Made by a program: the position numbers and the translations under genes
The notes under the pieces: generated by a model
What the model was told of the DNA's origin: nothing
The model's database searches: none
Seen by the model: the letters and a program-made list of their open reading frames with translations, nothing else
Origin: Planctomycetota bacterium
GTDB taxonomy: Bacteria > Planctomycetota > B15-G4 > JADJEK01
Length of the DNA stretch: 57,179 nt
Assembly (NCBI GenBank): GCA_044225365.1
Contig: JBGAIQ010000035.1
Coordinates: 1 to 57,179 of the forward strand
Direction: 5' to 3'
Shown here: piece after piece, positions 43,626-53,410 of the stretch
Numbering within the stretch: position 1 is the first letter of the stretch
Layout: every line of letters begins with the position of its first letter

Positions 43626-44543
43626 TCACTTCACGAGGTAGTCGAACACGGCTTCGAGGGATTCGTCACGGGTGACGACGCTGGAGACTTCGATGCCTTC
43701 GTCGAGCACCATCGATTCGAGCCGTTGGAACAGCCGCTCGGGTTCCTTGGTCTCGACCGTGAGCTGCGACGAATCGAACTGCATGCCGTGGACGCCAGGC
43801 TCGACCGCGAACTTGGCGCCCACTTCGCGATGACGCTCGGTGTGGATGCGAACCTGCAGCGGATGTTGGGAGAGCAGGGAGCGGATCTCGGACACCTTGC
43901 CCTCGGCGACGAGCTTGCCGTGGTGGATCAGCACGATCTGGTCCGTCGCCGATTCGACTTCGTGCAGCACGTGACTCGAGACCAGCACGGTGCGCCCCAG
44001 GTCGCCGAGACCGCGCATGAGATCGAGCATCTGCTTGCGCCCGACGGGATCGAGGCCCGTCAACGGTTCGTCGAGGACGAGGATCTCGGGATCGTTGACG
44101 AGCGATTGCGCGAACTTCGCCCGCTGGCGCATGCCCTTCGAGTAACTGCCGATCGGCCGGTCGGCGGCTTCAGTGAGCCCGACGAGTTCTAGCAGTTCCC
44201 GAGCCCGACGCTTCGACTCGCTGCGCGAGAAGCCCGTGAGGTAGGCGGCCGCGAAGACGAATCGATACCCGGTCCACTCGTTGTTGTACTTCTCGATATC
44301 GGGGCAGCAGCCGATGCGCGCGCGTGCTTCGTGATTCCCGAAGATCGGCTTGCCGAGGATCTTCACGACCCCGAGGTCGGGTCGGATCTGGCCGGTGATG
44401 AGCCGAATGAGCGTCGACTTGCCAGCGCCGTTCGGACCGAGCAGACCCGTGACGCCGGGCCCGATCTTCAACGTCACATCGTTCAACCCGCGCACCGGGC
44501 CGTAATCACGGCTAACGTGCTCCAGTTCGATTCGAGCGTCCAA
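43626..44543 (-). CDS. ABC transporter ATP-binding protein
   Basis: GPNGAGKS, YSKGMRQR, LDEPLTGLDP, SSHVL. Confidence 0.93.
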   Translation of the reverse strand: MDARIELEHVSRDYGPVRGLNDVTLKIGPGVTGLLGPNGAGKSTLIRLITGQIRPDLGVVKILGKPIFGNHEARARIGCCPDIEKYNNEWTGYRFVFAAAYLTGFSRSESKRRARELLELVGLTEAADRPIGSYSKGMRQRAKFAQSLVNDPEILVLDEPLTGLDPVGRKQMLDLMRGLGDLGRTVLVSSHVLHEVESATDQIVLIHHGKLVAEGKVSEIRSLLSQHPLQVRIHTERHREVGAKFAVEPGVHGMQFDSSQLTVETKEPERLFQRLESMVLDEGIEVSSVVTRDESLEAVFDYLVK

Positions 44544-44807
44544 GTGAGGGTCCTTCCTGAGAACGGGGGCCTACGAGAGCCGGAGCGAGGAATCCCGACC
44601 CCCACGACGAAGGGGGGAAATTTCATCGGGCGCCACGCCCCACCGCGACGGCTGACTGGAGTGAATTGCGCGTAAGGATCCGCAAGATCGAAGGCGGTGT
44701 GCGTATTGCCGCGATCGGTGGGTCATAGTACCCTTGAGTTGGCGCTTCCCGAAGCCGATCCGTTCCACCACACACCTCGAACGGTTTCGATCAGGGAGAC
44801 GACCCGG

Positions 44808-46451
44808 ATGGAATCTGTGCGAATTCTCATCCTTCGACTGGCGCTTGCCGCCGTCCTGGCCTTCCGCTTCGAAGCGATGGGCCAGCAAACGGCATTCGAA
44901 CAGACCGGCGGTTCCGCATCGGAACTGTTCGGCTCGGTGGTCGTTCGCATCCATGATTTCGATCACGATGGAGTCGAGGACCTCGCCGTCGGCGCGCCCG
45001 GTTTCGATCCCACGGTCCTGCTCACCAACGCCGGGCGCATCTACGTCGTCTCTGGCAAGAGCGGAGCCTTCCTCGGATTCGTGAACGGCGGTTCGGCGCT
45101 CGAGAAGTTCGGCACCTCGATCGTCCGGATCGATGACGTCACCGGAGACGGAGTGCCGGACATCGCCGCCGGCGCTCCCGGCTTCGGTGGAGGCAATCCC
45201 ACCGGGGCGATCCGCATCGTCGATGGCGCGAATCTCAGTCCCATCGGACTGATCGCGGGACCGTCGGCCGGAGCCCGCATCGGCGAACGACTCGTCGCAC
45301 TTACCGATCTCAACGGGAATGGCGTGAAGGAGATCGCGACCGGCGCTCGCGGACTCTCGATCGGCCTCACGCCCAACGTCGGAGCCGTACTGATCCTCGA
45401 TCCGGCGTCGGGCGCGACGATCGCGCAATTCAATGGACTCGCGGCGTTCGACGCGTTCGGCACGGGCCTCGGCCTCGTGAAGGACTTCAGTGGAGACGGC
45501 GTCCCCGAGCTCGTGATCGGCGCCCCTGGCGCGGATCCGCTCGGGAACAACGGCGCGGGCATGGTCCAGGTCGTCGATCCCGTGACCGGAAACGTGCTTT
45601 CGCAATTCAACGGACTCGCGGCGAGCGATTCGCTCGGAGCGACGTGCGACGGTCTCAGCGACATCGACGGCGACCAGTTCCCCGAGATCGTGGCGGGAGC
45701 GACCGGAGCGACCGTCAACGGCATCCCCCTCGCGGGGTCCGTGTTCGTCTACTCGACGGGCGCGAGTCAGGTCCTGGCGCGCATCGACGGCACCTCGGCC
45801 AATGACCAGTTCGGATCCACGCTCTCCGGCCTGCTCGACATCGACGGCGACGGGTTCGACGATTTCGCGGCGGGCTCGCCGAACTGGACGAAGCCGGGAG
45901 TGGCCGCAGCGGTCGGACGGGTCATCGTGTTCAGCGGCAGGACGCAGTCGTTGCTCTACGACTTCGCGGGCAGCTCCGGCGGCGTGGAATTCGGCGCCTT
46001 CGTCGGCCCGCTCGGCGATCTCAACGGCGATCATCGTCGCGACTTCGTGATCGGCTGGCCGTCGTTCGATCCGGTCGCGACCGACGCGGGTCAGATCTCC
46101 GTTCGCCTCGGCTCGACGCCGACGTGCGACATCACCACCACGGGGCAATACGGCAGCCCGATCACCTTTCGGCTGCAAGGCACACCGGGGCAATTCGCCT
46201 TCGTGATGCTCGACGTCGCACCAGGGTACTTTCCCACGGTCTACGGCAAGCTCTACCTCGGATTGACGGCGGCGTTCGGCGTCTTCGCGCTGGGGAACGT
46301 CCCGCTGGGTGGCAGTCTCGTGATCGCAACGACCCTGCCCCCCGCCGGTCCGCCCTCGGCGACGGTCTATCTCCAATCCGCGATCACGGATCCGAATGCG
46401 ATGGGCGGCGCTTGGTTCGGCGGTCACACGACCCTCAACATGCATCCCTGA
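44808..46451 (+). CDS. Secreted FG-GAP (integrin-alpha-like) beta-propeller protein with C-terminal beta-sandwich domain
   Basis: Signal peptide; seven FG...D(F/L/I)(D/N)GDG..D/E...GAP repeats. Confidence 0.9.
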   Translation: MESVRILILRLALAAVLAFRFEAMGQQTAFEQTGGSASELFGSVVVRIHDFDHDGVEDLAVGAPGFDPTVLLTNAGRIYVVSGKSGAFLGFVNGGSALEKFGTSIVRIDDVTGDGVPDIAAGAPGFGGGNPTGAIRIVDGANLSPIGLIAGPSAGARIGERLVALTDLNGNGVKEIATGARGLSIGLTPNVGAVLILDPASGATIAQFNGLAAFDAFGTGLGLVKDFSGDGVPELVIGAPGADPLGNNGAGMVQVVDPVTGNVLSQFNGLAASDSLGATCDGLSDIDGDQFPEIVAGATGATVNGIPLAGSVFVYSTGASQVLARIDGTSANDQFGSTLSGLLDIDGDGFDDFAAGSPNWTKPGVAAAVGRVIVFSGRTQSLLYDFAGSSGGVEFGAFVGPLGDLNGDHRRDFVIGWPSFDPVATDAGQISVRLGSTPTCDITTTGQYGSPITFRLQGTPGQFAFVMLDVAPGYFPTVYGKLYLGLTAAFGVFALGNVPLGGSLVIATTLPPAGPPSATVYLQSAITDPNAMGGAWFGGHTTLNMHP

Positions 46452-46464
46452 CCCAGCGCCGGAC

Positions 46465-47475
46465 TCACCCCTTCACCACCTCGAAGCCGCGCACTCTTCG
46501 ATGCAGGACGAAAAGGGCGAGGACGGCCCACGCGGCGGCGACGACGAGGACGCGCGAGAACGCGACGTCCTTCAAGGGTTCGGCGGCGGTCTGGAAGCGA
46601 CCGGACAGCATGGCGAGCTTGCGGGACGAACGCCGCACCTCGGGCTGGATCACGACCGGCTCCGACGGATCGACCGAATCCGATCCCGTCGATGGCTCCG
46701 CACTCGCCGTCGAGCGCACGTCGAGGACTTCGTAGTTGATCCGTTCGATCACGGAGACCGGATTCAAGAGGCGGAACTCGACATTGCGCGTGATGCCGAC
46801 GAGGGCGAGCGAGACGACGGGCAAACCGATGAGGATCGCGGCGATCGTGAGCATCGCATTGCGCTGCGTCTTGGCGAGCGACGACACGGCAAGGATGACC
46901 AGGGTCAGGAGCGCGATCCCGATGGTCTGTGCGACGACCGTTCGGACCAGGAGCGGCACTTGCGCCGCGAAATACCCCGGCTGTTCGGTCACCGAGACGT
47001 CGAGGATCCACAGGATCAGCAGCGGCACCATGCTGTTGAGCGCGGACACGGCGACGATCGTGAGGGATTTCCCGAACACGTAGTCGAAGCGCGTGAGCGG
47101 CCTCGAGAAGTAGATCTCGAGGGCGTTCGATGCGATGTCGTTGGCGATCGCTCCCCCGCCCGCGGTGACAGCGACGAGTGCGACGCAGTAGTTGAACCAG
47201 CCGATCGCGCGGAACACGGTGTCGGGAGTGAGATGCAGGAAGCGACTCAGTTCCTTCGGCAGTTGTTGGATGTTCCCCGATTCCGGCAGCAGGCTCGGGA
47301 GCAGCAGGAAGAGGCCGCCCGCGATCGTGAGCGCGATCGCCGGCAACGCGAGGATCCAACTGAGGCGCTTCTTGAAGAACTGGCGAATGCCGGTCTGCGC
47401 GATCGCGAGGTACCGAAAGCGCCGCGGATGCCGCACGCCCTCGATGCGCTTGTAGGAGAGGTCGTAGATCGGCAT
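46465..47475 (-). CDS. ABC-2 type transporter permease
   Basis: MPIYDLSY, IANDI..NALEIYFSRPLTR.DY..GK; multiple TMs. Confidence 0.85.
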   Translation of the reverse strand: MPIYDLSYKRIEGVRHPRRFRYLAIAQTGIRQFFKKRLSWILALPAIALTIAGGLFLLLPSLLPESGNIQQLPKELSRFLHLTPDTVFRAIGWFNYCVALVAVTAGGGAIANDIASNALEIYFSRPLTRFDYVFGKSLTIVAVSALNSMVPLLILWILDVSVTEQPGYFAAQVPLLVRTVVAQTIGIALLTLVILAVSSLAKTQRNAMLTIAAILIGLPVVSLALVGITRNVEFRLLNPVSVIERINYEVLDVRSTASAEPSTGSDSVDPSEPVVIQPEVRRSSRKLAMLSGRFQTAAEPLKDVAFSRVLVVAAAWAVLALFVLHRRVRGFEVVKG

Positions 47476-47476
47476 C

Positions 47477-48418
47477 TCAGTCCTTCGCCAATGCGCGCAT
47501 GAAGAGATCCTCCAGCGATTCCTCGAGCGGCGCGAGATGTCGCAAAGGCGTCTTCGACTCGCGGGCCACCTCGAACATGCAGCGCGGGGTCGGTGCAGGT
47601 CGCCCGTCCACTGCGGTCACGATCAACGAACCGCGCGGTTCGCGCTCGGCAGCAAAGCCGCGACGCACCGCGGCGGCGACGAAAGCCGTGGGGTCGCCGT
47701 GGACACGAACGACGAATCCTGCGCCGCGATCCTTCAACTGTTCGATCACACCCGACGCGCGGACCTTGCCGCCATCGAGGACGACGATGTCGTCGCAGAC
47801 GCGTTCGACGTCGCGCAGGAGGTGCGACGAGAGCACGACGTGGATCTTCTTCTCGTGACCGAGGTCGTGGACGAGATCGAGGATCTCGTTCCGCGCCTGC
47901 GGATCGAGTCCGTTCGTCGGCTCGTCGAGCAGGACGATCGCCGGATCGTGGACGAGCGCCGCGGCGAGCTTGACCTTCTGCTTCATGCCCCGCGAGTACT
48001 GATCGACCGGCCGATAGCGTTCTTCGTCGAGGCCGCAGTAGAGCAGCACTTCGTGGGCGCGCTGCTTGGCATCGCCCGCCGTCATCCCGCACATCCGTCC
48101 CGAGTACGACACGAACTCGAGTCCCGAGAGGCCGGGAATGTGACAATCGCTCTCCGGCATGTACCCCGTGTTCATGCGCACGGCGAGTGGAGCCGAAGCG
48201 GAGTCGAAGCCGAGCACGCGCGAGCGGCCGGCGAAAGGCGATACGAGTCCGAGGAGCGTGCGCAGGAGCGACGACTTGCCCGCTCCATTCGGTCCGAGGA
48301 GACCGAGCGAACCACCCTGAAAGGCGAAGTCGACGCCTTTCAGCGCCTCCTTCTTGCCGTACCGCACCACGAGTCCGGAGATCGAGATGACGCTTTCGCT
48401 TGCGGGAGTTTCGACCAT
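47477..48418 (-). CDS. ABC transporter ATP-binding protein
   Basis: GPNGAGKS, YSRGMKQK, LDEPTNGLDP, SSHLL. Confidence 0.93.
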   Translation of the reverse strand: MVETPASESVISISGLVVRYGKKEALKGVDFAFQGGSLGLLGPNGAGKSSLLRTLLGLVSPFAGRSRVLGFDSASAPLAVRMNTGYMPESDCHIPGLSGLEFVSYSGRMCGMTAGDAKQRAHEVLLYCGLDEERYRPVDQYSRGMKQKVKLAAALVHDPAIVLLDEPTNGLDPQARNEILDLVHDLGHEKKIHVVLSSHLLRDVERVCDDIVVLDGGKVRASGVIEQLKDRGAGFVVRVHGDPTAFVAAAVRRGFAAEREPRGSLIVTAVDGRPAPTPRCMFEVARESKTPLRHLAPLEESLEDLFMRALAKD

Positions 48419-48565
48419 GAGGCCCGTGAGACTACGAAAAGGGCGACGCGATGCAACGTCGGGAATGACGCGCGCGGGCTCGCGGACCGCCCTACTCGCG
48501 GGGTCGAGAGGATATTCGCGCAGATGTTCGTCGCGATCGAATCGGTCGCGAAGCGCTCGCGCCCG

Positions 48566-49642
48566 TCAGCGCCGCGAGGCGAAACGGCGCTCGACGACCG
48601 CCTTCGCCGGCGGCTGGGCGCGCGTGGACCCGAGCTTGGCGGTCGCTGCCCCGATCAGTGCCGTGATGTTGGCTTCGGGCACGGCGAAGGGGACTTCGGG
48701 GCCCTGGTTCGACAGGATGAAGCCCGCTCCCGCCTCGTGGATGGCGCGGCGAGCCGCGAAGCGCACCCGCTCCTGACTCCACCGCAACAACATCAGGTTG
48801 TTCAGATTGCCGATGAGCGCGCGGCCCGGGCCGATCGCCTGCCGCATCGCGGGCAGCGAGTCCTTGGCCCCGACGAGGAAGGCGACGACGTCGAGATCCG
48901 AGAGGTGCTTCGCGAACGGAAGGGAATCCCCGACCAGTTCCAGGGCCTTCCATCCCTTCACCTCGGAGAGGACCTGCTGCATGCACGGTTTGGCGTCCGC
49001 GAGGAAGGTCTTCTCCGAGAGGATCGTCGCCGACGCGATACCCTCCGCGAAGACCACGAGATCACAACCCGCGTCGAGTTGCGCCTGCGCCCATCGTCCG
49101 CTGAACGCGACCATCTTCGCGAGCAGCGTCTTGAAATGCCGCGCGCGTTGCTCCGGCCAGTGCAGCATCAGGTCCATGAACTTGCCCGTGCCCATGAGGA
49201 GCGAGGGCAGCGAGAACGGACCGACGACGGCCCCGACGATCAGTTTGTCACCCTTGAATCGCCGGGCGAGCGCGGACGCGGCCTCGAGCGTGCGGCGCAG
49301 GTAGGGCACGGCCGTGGGATCGGGAACGACGAGTCGATCGATGTCCTCGTAGCGATCGATCGCCATCTTGTTCACCGACGGCGGCCCCTGATCGTGGAAG
49401 GTGAGTCCGGCACCGAAGGCGAGCACGTCCTGGACCACGTGAGGGAACGCGAAGACCGCGTCGTGCCCGTATTTCTCGACGAGTCGTTCCTGACCCTCCG
49501 CCAGTCGTTTCGGGTCGCGGAAGTAATCCTTCAGTTCGATTCCGAGCGCGATCGCGCCTTGCTGCAGCAAGACCGGCATCACCGGAGTGCGATCGACGGA
49601 CTCGTTCTTCACGGCCGCAACGATGCGTTCGAGCGACTTCAT
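48566..49642 (-). CDS. Uroporphyrinogen decarboxylase/MtaA-CmuA fold protein
   Basis: M.SLERI.A......DRTPV.P, VVGPFSL..LLMG, QLDAG.D, LIGNL, GFILS, VP..NI; ATGA-coupled to the upstream MCP-corrinoid gene. Confidence 0.85.
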   Translation of the reverse strand: MKSLERIVAAVKNESVDRTPVMPVLLQQGAIALGIELKDYFRDPKRLAEGQERLVEKYGHDAVFAFPHVVQDVLAFGAGLTFHDQGPPSVNKMAIDRYEDIDRLVVPDPTAVPYLRRTLEAASALARRFKGDKLIVGAVVGPFSLPSLLMGTGKFMDLMLHWPEQRARHFKTLLAKMVAFSGRWAQAQLDAGCDLVVFAEGIASATILSEKTFLADAKPCMQQVLSEVKGWKALELVGDSLPFAKHLSDLDVVAFLVGAKDSLPAMRQAIGPGRALIGNLNNLMLLRWSQERVRFAARRAIHEAGAGFILSNQGPEVPFAVPEANITALIGAATAKLGSTRAQPPAKAVVERRFASRR

Positions 49643-51201
49643 CGCTTGCCTCCCCGCGCGCCGTCCTTGGTGAGAGCATGGAAGTGTCGCACGAGGCGAA
49701 CCGCTTCCGACGGCGTTCGTCCGACTCCGTCGGCGCCGAAGCGCTCTCGCAATCGGGGATCGACGTGGAAGATCGCGCCGCCCGCGATCACCTTCACGTG
49801 CCGCAATCCGCGGCGATCGAGATCCTGGCGCAGCAGCGGAATCCACTTCGCCGTATGGAGCAGCAGCGTCGAGACGCCGATCACGCTGGCGCGGTGCTCC
49901 ACGGCCGCCTCGATGAGGCGCTCGTTCGAGACCGAGAGTCCGAGGTCGATCACCGACACGCCGTCGGCCCGCAGCGCGATCGTGACGATGCGCCGCCCCA
50001 GATCGTGGTAGTCCTCGAACGCGTTGCCGAGAACGACAACCGGAGCATCGGCCGCGGCCGTGCGCGGCTCGTCGCCGCGCCGCCGCTCGAGTTCGTCGAG
50101 GGCCTCGCGGAGGATCCAACTGTTCCGAAAGTGCGTTTCGAGCGGCGGGTCGATGCCCTTGCGCAAGGCAACCGACGAGAGGTGCGACGATGCAGAGGCG
50201 ATCCGTTCGAGGACCTCGTGCTCGTTCGACCCCGCGGCGAGTGCCGTCTCCAGCGCGCGCCTGCCCCGAGCGGGATCGTCGGTTTCGATCGCGCTCGCGA
50301 ATTCGGACTCGAAGCGATCGAGTCCCGAACGATCCACGAAACGCTCGCTCGGCGCGCGTCGACGCGCGCACTCGGCATCGATGCGTACGTTGGCGGCGGC
50401 AAGTTCGCTACCGAGCGCCTGCCCGGCGGCGCTCGCCATCTCCACGTGGCGCTCGACGCACTCGACCATTTCGTTGAGTTCGGTCTGTCGCCACGCGATG
50501 CCCTCGACCTCGTGGGAGGTTGCGACGAGGCGTCCCGCCTGGTCGCGAATCGTGGACGAACACGCCTCCAGCGCACCCACCGACTGCTTCGCCTGCTCGA
50601 GGCCGACTTTCGTCGATGCGAATCGCGAAGCCATCTGATCGAAGGCGCTCTTGATCGCCGTCATGTCGTCGGTGATCGAGTCGGAGATGCCCGTCGTGCG
50701 CCGGCTGAGGTTCCCGACCTCCGTCGCGACGACTCCGAATCCCGCGGCATCGGCGCTCCCCGCGCGTGTCGCCTCGATCCTGGCGTTCAGCGACAACAGC
50801 CCAGACTGGCGCGCGATCTCCGAGATCTCGGACGCGGACTTCCGAATGCGAGTGACGACGTCCATCAGCCCCGAGAAGCTCGACTCGAAGTCGGCGACGA
50901 TCGACGTGAACGCGCGCAGGACCTCGGCGGCCTCGCCGATGCTGCGCACGGTCGTTTCTGCGGTCGACTCGAGCGCATCGCTCGTGTCGCAGATCTGGTT
51001 CGTGACCGATTCGAATCCGCCGCCGCGCATCAATTGGATCGCGGACTTCAGCGCGTCCGCGGCCGCGCTGTTCGAGCTGACGCAATCCTCGGCGAGGCTG
51101 CGTTGCCGGTGGATGTCCCGCGCCGTTGCCTCGAGTGCCGAGTCGGACTCCGACTCGATACCGCTCGATGCGACGACTTCCCCGATCGATTGGATCGCCA
51201 T
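49639..51201 (-). CDS. Soluble methyl-accepting chemotaxis signalling domain fused to a C-terminal cobalamin-binding (cap + Rossmann) module
   Basis: MCP tip ISEIARQSGLLSLNARIEATRAG..AGFGVVATEVGNLS; B12 motif VVLG...DYHDLG..IV...L...G..VIDLG..V, GVSTLL, VIAGGA, GADG; no TM segments. Confidence 0.88.
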   Translation of the reverse strand: MAIQSIGEVVASSGIESESDSALEATARDIHRQRSLAEDCVSSNSAAADALKSAIQLMRGGGFESVTNQICDTSDALESTAETTVRSIGEAAEVLRAFTSIVADFESSFSGLMDVVTRIRKSASEISEIARQSGLLSLNARIEATRAGSADAAGFGVVATEVGNLSRRTTGISDSITDDMTAIKSAFDQMASRFASTKVGLEQAKQSVGALEACSSTIRDQAGRLVATSHEVEGIAWRQTELNEMVECVERHVEMASAAGQALGSELAAANVRIDAECARRRAPSERFVDRSGLDRFESEFASAIETDDPARGRRALETALAAGSNEHEVLERIASASSHLSSVALRKGIDPPLETHFRNSWILREALDELERRRGDEPRTAAADAPVVVLGNAFEDYHDLGRRIVTIALRADGVSVIDLGLSVSNERLIEAAVEHRASVIGVSTLLLHTAKWIPLLRQDLDRRGLRHVKVIAGGAIFHVDPRLRERFGADGVGRTPSEAVRLVRHFHALTKDGARGGKR

Positions 51202-51412
51202 GGCTGTGCCCCGTCCCGCGACCTCGCGACCGGGCGATGCGGGGAGATGAACTACGACACGGGGAAATGTCGACGAAATCGTCGTCAATTCTTGATCGTG
51301 ACCGGGGCGGCGCCCGGAGCGCCAGGTTCACGTGTTCAGAATTGAAACGGATGCGGGGGCGGTCGATGTGCGCCGGATGGGATTTCCGGGCGCACCGCCG
51401 TGCGCCCGCGCG

Positions 51413-53251
51413 TCATTTCAATTTCGGGAGTTCATCGCTCGCGAACTTGCGGACCTTTGCGTCGAGCGCGACCCAATCGGCCTCCGACTTCAGTCCGAGC
51501 AGCTCGCCGAGCTTCTGCCAGTAGCCTTCGCCCTTCGTCTCCGCCTCGATGTAGTCGTCGAGCACTTCGCGGTACTTGCCGCCCTCGGCGTGGTTCAAGT
51601 ACATGCAGAAGACCCAGCCGTAGGCGTAGATCTGGGAAACGAGCACCTGCGCCTTCTGCCCCTCCTCGCCGCCCGAGTTCGACTTCTTCTTCGCTTCCTC
51701 GAATTGATAGTTGTCGATCTTCACGAGCTGCAGCGTCGCGACGCCGAGTCCGGCTCCCTCGAGGAAGCTGTATTCGCCGTAGCGACCGGGAATGAACTGA
51801 TTCAGCACGTACGTCGTCTTCGGCGCGCCATCGGGTCCCGTGCCCTCGATCCTCTTGTGGCCCGCGAACAACTCTGCGATGCCCTCTTGGAGCCAGGGTG
51901 TCTGGTGGCTCGGCTGGAATCCCTTCCCCGAGAAAGCGTAGTGCACGAACATGTGGGTGCCTTCGTGGAAGAGCACCTGTTCGATCGTGAGTCCGGTCCC
52001 CCGCTCCGATGGCCGCCACATGATGAGGCGCTGCTCGCCCGGCGAGTAGTAGCCGCCGATGCCGGCAGGATCGGCATACCCCTCGTCCTTGTGATTCGCG
52101 ATGTGCGCGCTGTAGCTCTGCGTGCTGTCGAACATGATCACGCGGATCGGTCGTTCGATGTCGCGCTCCAGCTTGAATCTCTTCTCGTAGCGATCGAAGA
52201 ACGTCTCGTAGAGCGACTGCAGGATGGTCGCGTACTCGCTGCGGTACCGCTCGAGCTTCGCTTCGTCCTTCGGTCGCTGGATCGCAACGAAGAACGGTTG
52301 CGGCATCATCCCCTTGCCGTACGCGTACAGCCAGTCGGACTCGGGGTACTCCGCGATCATGCGACGCTTCTGCTCGTCGCAATTGCGAACGAACGCGTCC
52401 GCGGTCGTCGCGGACGTGCCGACGTTCGAATCGTCGTAGTCCTTCTCGATGGTCTCGGCGCGCTTCTGATCGACCTTGTCGAGCCAGCGACCGCGCAGCT
52501 TGCTCACCTTGCCGTCGTACTTGACGAAACCGAGCGCGGTACGCGCGGCAGCGTTGTCGGGATCGAGGACGAGGGCCTCACGCCGCAGCATGCGCGCTTC
52601 GGGCTGGAGTTCGTTCGCGTCGCAGAACGCCGCGAGTTCGACCCGCGACCTGGCGTCGCCCGGCAGGAGCCCCTTGCGCTTGCTCTCGTAGTCGGCGCGA
52701 GCGACCGCGGGATCGATCCCCTTCGGAGATGTCGCCGCGCCGTTGCCGGCCGCATTCTCCGCGGGCTTGCCGTTCGCCGCCGTCGCGTTCGACTGGGGCG
52801 ACGAGGAACTCGTCGCGCCGCCCGGTTGCTTGCCGCTGCTCGCATCGCCGCCGCTGCCGCTCATCACGTAGGCCAGCACGCCACCCACGACCACGACGCC
52901 AAGGACGATGAGACCGACCTTCGCGCCCGACTTCCCCTTCGGAGCCGCTGCATCGTGAGCGTGCGCGCGAGCGCGTGCGCCGCGCGAGGCGACCTTCGAA
53001 CTCGGCTGGCGACGACCGGCGCGATCCGCGGGCGGCCGCTTCGGCGGCAGCGGTGCGGCGCACTCTTCCTGAGATTGCGCTTCTCGCGCTTCGGCCTCGT
53101 CCGGCGCCGATGGAACGGGAGGCGGCGCGATGCCGTCGCGAGCGGGGACCTCGACGATTCCGTCCTTGCACTGAGGACAACGGAACAGCGTGCCCGGCTT
53201 GCGCGCACTCACGTCGCTCCGTTGACCGCACTGCTTGCATGTCGCGAACAT
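51413..53251 (-). CDS. Zinc-ribbon / TM / DUF1570-like zincin metallopeptidase-domain protein
   Basis: N-terminal CKQC..CPQC; Pro/Ala linker; TM; IGGYY, VLFHEGTHM, PWLQEGIAELF, IYAYGW. Confidence 0.8.
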   Translation of the reverse strand: MFATCKQCGQRSDVSARKPGTLFRCPQCKDGIVEVPARDGIAPPPVPSAPDEAEAREAQSQEECAAPLPPKRPPADRAGRRQPSSKVASRGARARAHAHDAAAPKGKSGAKVGLIVLGVVVVGGVLAYVMSGSGGDASSGKQPGGATSSSSPQSNATAANGKPAENAAGNGAATSPKGIDPAVARADYESKRKGLLPGDARSRVELAAFCDANELQPEARMLRREALVLDPDNAAARTALGFVKYDGKVSKLRGRWLDKVDQKRAETIEKDYDDSNVGTSATTADAFVRNCDEQKRRMIAEYPESDWLYAYGKGMMPQPFFVAIQRPKDEAKLERYRSEYATILQSLYETFFDRYEKRFKLERDIERPIRVIMFDSTQSYSAHIANHKDEGYADPAGIGGYYSPGEQRLIMWRPSERGTGLTIEQVLFHEGTHMFVHYAFSGKGFQPSHQTPWLQEGIAELFAGHKRIEGTGPDGAPKTTYVLNQFIPGRYGEYSFLEGAGLGVATLQLVKIDNYQFEEAKKKSNSGGEEGQKAQVLVSQIYAYGWVFCMYLNHAEGGKYREVLDDYIEAETKGEGYWQKLGELLGLKSEADWVALDAKVRKFASDELPKLK

Positions 53252-53410
53252 CGAGACCCTCCGCATCGTTTCGTGGAACCGGCCGGCGCGGTTCGTCGAG
53301 CCCAGAGCGTAAAGGATTCCCTGGCCACGATGAAATCCCACCATCCGATCGGCGGTAGAGTAACGTACGAAATCCCTGCCCGGCTGCGATCCGCAGAAAG
53401 TCAGCAACGG

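Follow-up and report, generated by a model that had tools for sequence, protein, structure and literature searches.

A candidate cobalamin-based sensory input on a soluble chemoreceptor, with a UroD-fold partner, in a contig of a Planctomycetota bacterium

How a corrinoid module of the kind found in methyltransferases comes to sit on a chemoreceptor, and what it might do there, is the question raised by two overlapping genes at positions 48566 to 51201 (minus strand) of contig JBGAIQ010000035.1 (assembly GCA_044225365.1, Planctomycetota bacterium); the whole stretch analysed, 57,179 nucleotides in length, is referred to as the window. The upstream gene encodes a fusion of a methyl-accepting chemotaxis protein (MCP) signalling hairpin with a corrinoid (B12) module (P0001), and the downstream gene encodes a protein of the uroporphyrinogen decarboxylase (UroD)/MtaA fold (P0002, the partner). 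Corrinoid module and partner together have the appearance of a cobalamin-based sensory input that is portable and has here been joined to a chemoreceptor, because sister pairs in other genomes adjoin histidine kinases, Ser/Thr kinases and a Roadblock/MglA-like set. Each of the parts is known; what appears to be undescribed is the way in which they are combined, and with it the wider association of this UroD clade with signalling proteins. An MCP with a B12 domain or a UroD partner was not found described in the open-access literature, supplementary tables, which may hold a mention, aside; the first-pass annotation, made from the sequence alone, had likewise known of no characterised receptor of such architecture.

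The gene pair and its recurrence

The pair comprises the following features.

49639..51201, minus strand: MCP-corrinoid fusion gene (P0001, 520 amino acids, soluble), from the open reading frame (ORF) and its translation, with Pfam MCPsignal and B12-binding domains
48566..49642, minus strand: UroD/MtaA-fold partner gene (P0002, 358 amino acids), Pfam URO-D at 166.4 bits
49639..49642, minus strand: ATGA overlap of the fusion stop with the partner start, preceded by GGAGG, read from the sequence; in relatives the partner starts likewise abut or overlap the upstream stops

The junction reads GGAGGcaagcgATGA, with the Shine-Dalgarno-like GGAGG 6 nucleotides upstream of the partner start, and bears out the overlap reported in the first-pass annotation. 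The frame of 520 amino acids without a transmembrane segment was also confirmed (the highest Kyte-Doolittle mean over 19 residues is 1.39 and lies within the Rossmann fold); the start of P0001 is uncertain, a TTG at 51288 being possible instead of the ATG at 51201.

A word-indexed search of 5.8 billion proteins returned 48 proteins which combine PF00015 with PF02310 (492-616 amino acids, 29-53% identity), and an exhaustive HMMER search of 1.84 billion cluster representatives returned 38 proteins or clusters at E<=1e-30, below which stand-alone corrinoid proteins of about 215 amino acids follow. Scanning one genome per prokaryotic species yielded 14 carrier loci. These span at least seven phyla and bear the labels Eisenbacteria, Hydrogenedentota, Planctomycetota, Chloroflexota, Thermoleophilia, Firmicutes, Calditrichaceae and Gammaproteobacteria. 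In 13 of them the next gene downstream encodes a homologue of P0002 (41-64% identity); in the 14th the contig stops 5 bases past the receptor match. The pairing of the fusion with the UroD gene is obligate, and the two-gene arrangement, which recurs in many assemblies, is far beyond chance. The first-pass annotation had considered that the fusion might be an assembly chimera seen in no other genome; this is ruled out by the 48 proteins of independent assemblies, spread with the 14 loci over several phyla, and by the composition (GC content 0.65-0.66 around both genes), which shows no break.

An all-against-all ORF comparison of 15 loci revealed no third conserved gene around the pair; apart from both genes and antisense shadows of them, it returned only an ABC-type cluster of generic kind, present in 3 loci. 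Regarding a triple fusion of MCP, B12 and UroD parts, a search of longer proteins with P0002 gave one unrelated URO-D protein of 698 amino acids, which is weak evidence on this point.

Corrinoid module, partner and chemoreceptor hairpin

The fusion protein is divided as follows.

50368..51153, minus strand: antiparallel coiled-coil signalling hairpin, residues 17-278 (AlphaFold2 helices 17-59, 63-146 and 153-278; turn 147-152)
50686..50826, minus strand: hairpin tip, residues 126-172, with the core LLSLNARIEATRAG..GFGVVATEV, the canonical CheA/CheW contact, from alignment with the genome's 8 other MCPs
50326..50367, minus strand: linker between hairpin and cap, residues 279-292 (predicted local distance difference test (pLDDT) score <50 over 282-291; conservation 0.37)
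50077..50325, minus strand: four-helix cap, residues 293-375 (model helices 293-306, 310-322, 327-347 and 354-375)
49651..50040, minus strand: Rossmann-type B12-binding domain, residues 388-517 (Pfam B12-binding; conservation 0.75)
49996-50013, minus strand: DxHxxG motif (EDYHDLG), residues 397-402, with D397, H399 and G402

Regarding the corrinoid module, Pfam B12-binding matched residues 388-501 with 77.5 bits (cut-off 32.1). Residues D397, H399, G402, S444, L446, G474 and G475 are invariant in 30 aligned homologues (alignment A1), and the motifs DxHxxG, SxL (444-446) and GG (474-475) are invariant also in a wider alignment of fused and stand-alone forms (A3); model and motifs agree with the cap and His-on B12 domain described in the first-pass annotation. 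Of the four Pfam families named there, MCPsignal, B12-binding and URO-D were found above their cut-offs, whereas B12-binding_2 was not detected in P0001 at E<=0.1, though it was in sister stand-alone corrinoid proteins. A sequence search of the PDB placed 1y80 (6e-12) and MtmC (3ezx, 2e-11) on top, and the best NCBIfam matches were pyl_corrinoid (TIGR02370, 56 bits against a cut-off of 215), MtgC (56 against 370) and MtbC (54 against 350), with MtaC at 37 against 420, all far under the cut-offs. Judged by these matches, the corrinoid part is of the methyltransferase type, as had been proposed from the sequence at the outset. With Foldseek, the C-terminal 215 amino acids of P0001 matched MttC (7xcn), 4jgi and MtmC (3ezx, TMt 0.79), and also the CarH-type domains 8jbs, 8c3x and 5c8d and the photocobilins 8j2w and 8j2y (TMt 0.45-0.69); since both methyltransferase corrinoid proteins and CarH-type domains are matched, the fold alone does not decide between them.

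The partner was modelled with a pLDDT of 91, and its nearest fold is MtaA (4ay7; template modelling (TM) score 0.83/0.88, root-mean-square deviation 2.4), next to uroporphyrinogen decarboxylases (TM about 0.78). In the HMMER alignment with 4ay7, the H and C of 'lHiCg' and the C of 'GCg', which we take to be the zinc ligands His-x-Cys...Cys of MtaA, correspond to E235, V237 and P315; in the alignment with HemE (3cyv), the position of the FSDIL aspartate, presumably catalytic in that enzyme, is occupied by H68. All four residues (H68, E235, V237 and P315) are invariant in 13 partners (alignment A2). An assignment to MtaA or MtbA proper is ruled out by the E/V/P at the zinc-ligand positions and by the NCBIfam cut-offs, all of which were missed (PRK06252 92.5 bits against 244; the MtaA/CmuA subfamily TIGR01463, second best, 84 against 235; MtaA 73 against 400; MtbA 58 against 600). 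HemE is ruled out by TIGR01464 (51 against 303 bits), by H68 in place of the aspartate and by a genuine hemE (390 bits) on contig C2 of the window genome, in which no third URO-D gene was found beyond P0002 and hemE. The MtaA/UroD-fold partner of the first-pass annotation thus stands as to its fold and its coupling to the fusion gene, but not as an MtaA or MtbA enzyme.

Invariant residues are found at the C-terminal end of every barrel strand (P67-H68, G86-P-S89, P142-F-S144, G201/S204, E235-x-V-G238, N281-N282 and Q313-G-P-E316). The active sites of triosephosphate isomerase (TIM) barrels lie at these strand ends, and the partner consequently looks like an active protein with an intact-looking pocket. 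Mean column identity across phyla is 64% for the partner and 41% for the receptor. Both the corrinoid module and the partner are of methyltransferase-type ancestry. A prediction of the complex of fusion residues 285-520 with the partner was rated as weak support, with a median score of 0.36 against 0.00 for the best control, the runs sharing at least 83% of contacts and the partner keeping a pLDDT of at least 86. In the calibration set, 58 of 80 solved complexes and 2 of 110 mismatched pairs passed, and scores <=0.60 comprised 7 of the 58 passing solved complexes together with both passing mismatches; the score of the present pair, which may reflect likeness to solved corrinoid-methyltransferase complexes, was weighed neither way.

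Regarding the chemoreceptor part, Pfam MCPsignal matched residues 112-255 with 53.3 bits (cut-off 34.6), the tip quoted in the first-pass annotation (IARQSGLLSLNARIEATRAG...GFGVVATEV) is present, and the AlphaFold2 model (built on 30 homologues, pLDDT 77) forms a helical hairpin with arms estimated from the model at ~18 heptads each; BLAST of P0001 against the MCPs of its genome, run for the heptad class, gave gapped alignments. The tip core can be aligned with that of every other MCP of the genome (8 in all). The tip, the most conserved stretch of the coiled coil, has a mean column conservation of 0.66 and the Rossmann domain one of 0.75, which argues for selection on both since the arms reach only 0.43-0.47. 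Because the hairpin folds back, the C-terminal module would lie at the tip-distal end, as ordinary input domains do. The earlier statement that chemoreceptor sensor domains are normally N-terminal needs qualifying, as C-terminal ones have precedents in the CZB domain of TlpD and in PilZ. Two Che clusters were found in the window genome (6.5 Mb, 94% complete), one on contig C34 and one on C66, and each comprises CheA, CheW and CheR (two CheA dimerisation domains and two CheR in total), so that the cheA and cheW genes which a signalling role presupposes in the first-pass annotation are at hand; CheW domains occur also in all 14 other carrier genomes.

A near-invariant GGF-A motif (residues 59-64, window about 51010-51027) interrupts the helix of the N-arm ~88 residues from the tip, facing a conserved IAxxQVxxQE stretch of the C-arm. 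The kink spans residues 60-63, and G62, F63 and A64 are almost invariant in the alignment of 30 homologues; P0006, P0008 and P0011 carry a methylation-site-like motif at the same position.

Sister pairs and the proposed reading

The partner alignment was searched against 301 genomes of the window's phylum and against metagenome contigs. In the phylum scan 13 genomes matched the partner profile at E<=1e-40, seven of them with at least 346 bits. Among 17 metagenome loci, six have an MCP-B12 fusion upstream (L046, L047, L053, L055, L056 and L058), one has a B12 part at the contig end, five have a stand-alone cap and B12 protein (one being a duplicate of L027), one has no corrinoid gene and four have no upstream sequence. 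Both scans together gave 10 distinct stand-alone pairs of corrinoid and UroD genes, six of which adjoin signalling genes on the same strand:

L052: GAF-PAS histidine kinase and OmpR-type regulator
L057: PAS histidine kinase
L044: DUF1638-HisKA-HATPase-REC hybrid kinase
L041 and L043: Ser/Thr kinases
L027: DUF4388-Roadblock, GAF and MglA-like GTPase

With the 17 distinct MCP fusions added, the total is 27 pairs, and a tie to a signal-transduction protein exists for 23 of them. A maximum-likelihood tree of 36 UroD rows groups all these partners in a single clade (100/99), apart from more distant UroD-like genes; the partners of MCP fusions fall into two subclades (16 and 4 rows), and the backbone of the clade is unresolved. 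Several phyla are intermingled in the main fused subclade, suggesting that the cassette has been transferred horizontally.

The kinase of L044 (6294-8552, plus strand) carries DUF1638 at its N-terminus and overlaps the end of the corrinoid and UroD pair. In the published extracts available, DUF1638 is genetically tied to the function of corrinoid proteins in split methionine synthases, and its fusion to a kinase hints that it reads or binds corrinoid proteins. The pair at L027 (6254-11675, plus strand; a metagenome-assembled genome (MAG) labelled Gammaproteobacteria) lies between genes for DUF4388-Roadblock, GAF and an MglA-like small GTPase, and looks like a switch of the motility-polarity type with a cobalamin input. 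As for DUF1638, we know of it otherwise only through the genetics of split methionine synthases.

Three low-GC genomes of the window's phylum (G135, G154 and G087 of family f47; L040-L044) hold two paralogous pairs each, whose scores with the partner profile are about 376-400 bits for one copy and about 227-247 bits for the other; of the second copies, that of G135 adjoins a Ser/Thr kinase, that of G154 a histidine kinase, and that of G087 is on contig C479. At two further loci of the phylum with distant UroD-like genes (L037 and L039), two UroD-like genes stand in tandem behind a B12-domain gene, an order which resembles classical multi-methyltransferase clusters and not the sensory pair.

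The core of the proposed mechanism is a protein-bound cobalamin, held by the cap and the His-on Rossmann domain, and a dedicated zinc-less partner of UroD/MtaA fold that would dock on cap and Rossmann domain. The partner would set the state of the cobalt, most likely by catalysing or gating a methyl (alkyl) transfer between the cobalt and a small molecule; the changed assembly of cap, Rossmann domain and partner would alter the packing of the dimeric four-helix bundle, and altered packing would change the activity of CheA at the conserved tip. Cobalamin binding, partner docking, methyl transfer, the identity of the ligand and the control of CheA are steps that we infer. We consider the chances about even for the proposal as a whole, in which the alkylation state of the cobalt is set by the partner and then passed on to CheA. 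The wider claim, namely that a corrinoid protein with a zinc-less UroD partner represents a new, horizontally mobile class of signal input which senses by catalysis, its signal being the covalent state of the cofactor as read by chemoreceptors, histidine kinases, Ser/Thr kinases or Roadblock-MglA switches, is possible but somewhat doubtful.

To our knowledge, cobalamin as a signal input is known only from riboswitches and light-sensing regulators, and the sensors of cytoplasmic chemoreceptors use flavin adenine dinucleotide (FAD), haem or metals. If true, the proposal would add a new cofactor and a new logic, sensing through a covalent change of the cofactor, to bacterial signalling, and would tie methyl-group chemistry, or the state of light or redox, to motility in poorly known lineages (Planctomycetota, Hydrogenedentota, Eisenbacteria, Chloroflexota and others). 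Since kinases and GTPase-switch genes also occur next to it, the cassette may be a plug-in sensor of general use, and it may serve as a compact two-protein part for engineered signalling. A clade of "uroporphyrinogen decarboxylase family proteins", so far unannotated, would also gain its first functional context.

Objections, alternatives and known systems

Several observations weigh against the proposed mechanism, the main weakness being a sustained Co(I) chemistry without visible support. Classical corrinoid methyl transfer requires a reductive activase, and no RamA/RACo activase (PF14574) was found in the window genome at its 94% completeness or in any of the 14 other carriers, which are MAGs, so that absence from them is unproven; a Methanosarcina genome, used as positive control, matched. 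A reading that cycles through Co(I) is weakened by this result. No second methyltransferase gene lies beside the window pair, and with P0002 as the only UroD paralogue besides hemE the pair appears to stand outside any evident methylotrophic pathway; the missing activase and the missing second methyltransferase argue against a catabolic methyl-transfer pathway. The methyltransferase module rewired as a sensor, as conceived in the first-pass annotation, gains from the kinases and the Roadblock-MglA set beside the sister pairs, and loses by the missing activase and by a partner that is not MtaA or MtbA.

Other objections concern the receptor. The spacing R..F of the U-turn is 9 in P0001, whereas it is 8 in 45 of the 48 members of the family and in all 8 other MCPs of its genome; the turn is thus longer by one residue, and by six in the closest relative (P0003), which could weaken the coupling to CheA/CheW in the window's clade. 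The pattern [ASTG][ASTG]xx[EQ][EQ]xx[ASTG][ASTG], which we take to represent the consensus of CheR/CheB methylation sites, has no match in P0001; it occurs in 9 of the 48 members of the family and in 7 of the 8 other MCPs of the genome. The linker of 14 residues, poorly conserved and modelled with low confidence, would be a poor rigid transmitter. No che genes lie beside the pair in any locus, no family member is from a cultured organism (all names are generic), and the count of signalling neighbours comes from 10 loci, some of them related (L041, L043 and L044 are from one genome family).

Light, rather than a methyl donor, could be the stimulus. In such a B12 photoreceptor, light would cleave the Co-C bond of bound adenosylcobalamin or methylcobalamin, and the change of assembly or oligomeric state would reach CheA and elicit a photophobic or phototactic response, the partner re-alkylating or exchanging the spent cofactor or holding a second tetrapyrrole. 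CarH, AerR and the photocobilins have the same cap and Rossmann B12 module as a signal input, and B12 photoreceptors with varied outputs are established according to the literature extracts available; in addition to the superpositions given above, the sequence search recovered photocobilin 8j2y (9e-5) and the MerR-family B12 domain 8jbs (0.008), and a light sensor needs no reductive activase, none being found in 15 genomes. These sequence matches are far lower than those to methyltransferase corrinoid proteins in the PDB and NCBIfam, and CarH was absent from the PDB search at E<=0.01. The cap motif of CarH, Wx9EH, was not seen on inspection of A1 or A3 by eye. Known B12 photoreceptors also work without a UroD-fold partner, which in the present pair is better conserved than any other part, and we regard a photoreceptor as unlikely.

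Both a redox or oxygen sensor and a role outside the Che system appear quite improbable. In the former, which would serve energy taxis, the Co(II)/Co(III) couple (or Co(I)) would report the redox state as FAD does in Aer, and the partner would shield or tune the cofactor; a soluble cofactor-bearing domain at the input end of an MCP, the missing activase and the many carriers labelled as bioreactor and sediment lineages are compatible with it. Nothing speaks specifically for it, and it leaves unexplained why an enzyme-like UroD barrel with an invariant pocket is constantly co-translated. In the latter, the coiled coil would be a scaffold that dimerises or localises a corrinoid enzyme pair, or would exert control other than through CheA. 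Among the 9 MCPsignal matches of its genome P0001 scores lowest (55 bits, the others 102-181), and the lengthened U-turn, the absent methylation motifs and the lack of an adjoining che gene point the same way; an MCP-like regulator with an output other than chemotaxis has been described in Escherichia coli, as far as the available text of PMC12623472 goes. Against such a role, the tip is the best-conserved part of the coiled coil, with canonical core and spacing in 45 of 48 members, CheW is present in 15 of 15 carrier genomes, and the sister pairs are linked to signalling proteins and not to metabolic genes.

A sensor of corrinoid availability, whose apo and holo forms would signal differently and steer cells by their B12 status with the partner as loading or processing chaperone, is very improbable. 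The window genome makes heavy use of B12 (18 B12-binding matches, including a MetH-sized frame) and the binding motifs are intact, but no conserved transporter or cob gene lies beside the pair and the invariant polar pocket of the barrel suggests chemistry rather than hand-over. The best of these B12-binding matches (86 bits, contig C93, 81854-82192) lies in a frame of 278 amino acids which could be a small stand-alone B12 regulator or corrinoid protein. Haem binding by the B12-like domain is scarcely credible: the SCHIC domains of AppA/PpaA are B12-like folds that bind haem (according to the source extracts available) and the partner has a porphyrinogen-binding fold, but neither the family nor its sister groups show any variation in the full cobalamin signature (DxHxxG, SxL and GG).

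The reading of a cobalamin-based input set by its partner was compared with known systems. The best matches in sequence and fold for both parts are the pairs MtaC/MtaA and MtmC/MtbA and MttC, in which a cap and Rossmann His-on corrinoid module likewise adjoins a UroD-fold TIM barrel. Unlike in these methylotroph pairs, the corrinoid module of the window is fused to an MCP, its partner has none of the three zinc ligands, neither a second methyltransferase nor a RamA/RACo activase was found, and no NCBIfam cut-off was reached. Cytoplasmic chemoreceptors with a cofactor include Aer with FAD and HemAT and Aer2 with haem; as in these and in the CZB and PilZ MCPs, a soluble or cytoplasmic cofactor or metal input would control an MCP hairpin, and the CZB and PilZ MCPs share the C-terminal placement of the input. 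The present receptor differs in its putative cobalamin cofactor, its obligate enzyme-like partner and a flexible linker instead of a continuous helix.

Zinc-free enzymes of the UroD superfamily which methylate a corrinoid protein include CdmB and a Moorella O-demethylase (available text of PMC13222342), and in such systems the zinc-free barrel presents the methyl donor to the Co(I) of a separate cap and Rossmann protein (extracts of PMC13222342 and PMC10418091). The window pair resembles in this respect the chloromethane dehalogenase CdmB/CdmC and the O-demethylases MtvB, OdmB and VdmB, and these zinc-free methyltransferase I (MTI) enzymes offer the best working analogy for the partner, likened by description. 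These systems, unlike the window pair, include a methyltransferase II (MTII), depend on an activating enzyme and are catabolic. CmuA of aerobic chloromethane users acts as both MTI and corrinoid protein (available text of PMC13222342) and likewise combines a UroD-type methyltransferase with a corrinoid domain as one unit; there both parts are fused in one enzyme which feeds a catabolic pathway through CmuB, whereas the window pair has separate genes with the corrinoid part on an MCP and misses the 235-bit cut-off of the subfamily. The type 1 mlp clusters of Kountz and Balskus (PMC10418091) are widespread, uncharacterised sets of MtaA-like and corrinoid proteins outside methanogens; in the available part of that source they differ from the window pair in having two or three Mlps and a Ram/RACE activase and in being confined to obligate anaerobes, and a link to signalling is not mentioned there.

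Regarding transcription, a scan of 48200-51700 gave no promoter-like sites and 3 terminator-like sites, against 1.9 expected; the window DNA was found in bioreactor metagenome runs, and among RNA runs none containing the window sequence was listed. Downstream of the pair on the same strand are ABC-2 type transporter genes (two ATPases and one permease; 43626-48418, minus strand), between which a gene for an FG-GAP repeat protein lies on the opposite strand (44697-46451, plus strand); these genes are not conserved in other loci. Immediately upstream of the receptor gene is a frame of 625 amino acids (51413-53290, minus strand) which has no Pfam match at E<=0.001 and in which a zinc-ribbon-like N-terminus (CxxC...CxxC) and a metallopeptidase-like HEGTH motif are seen.

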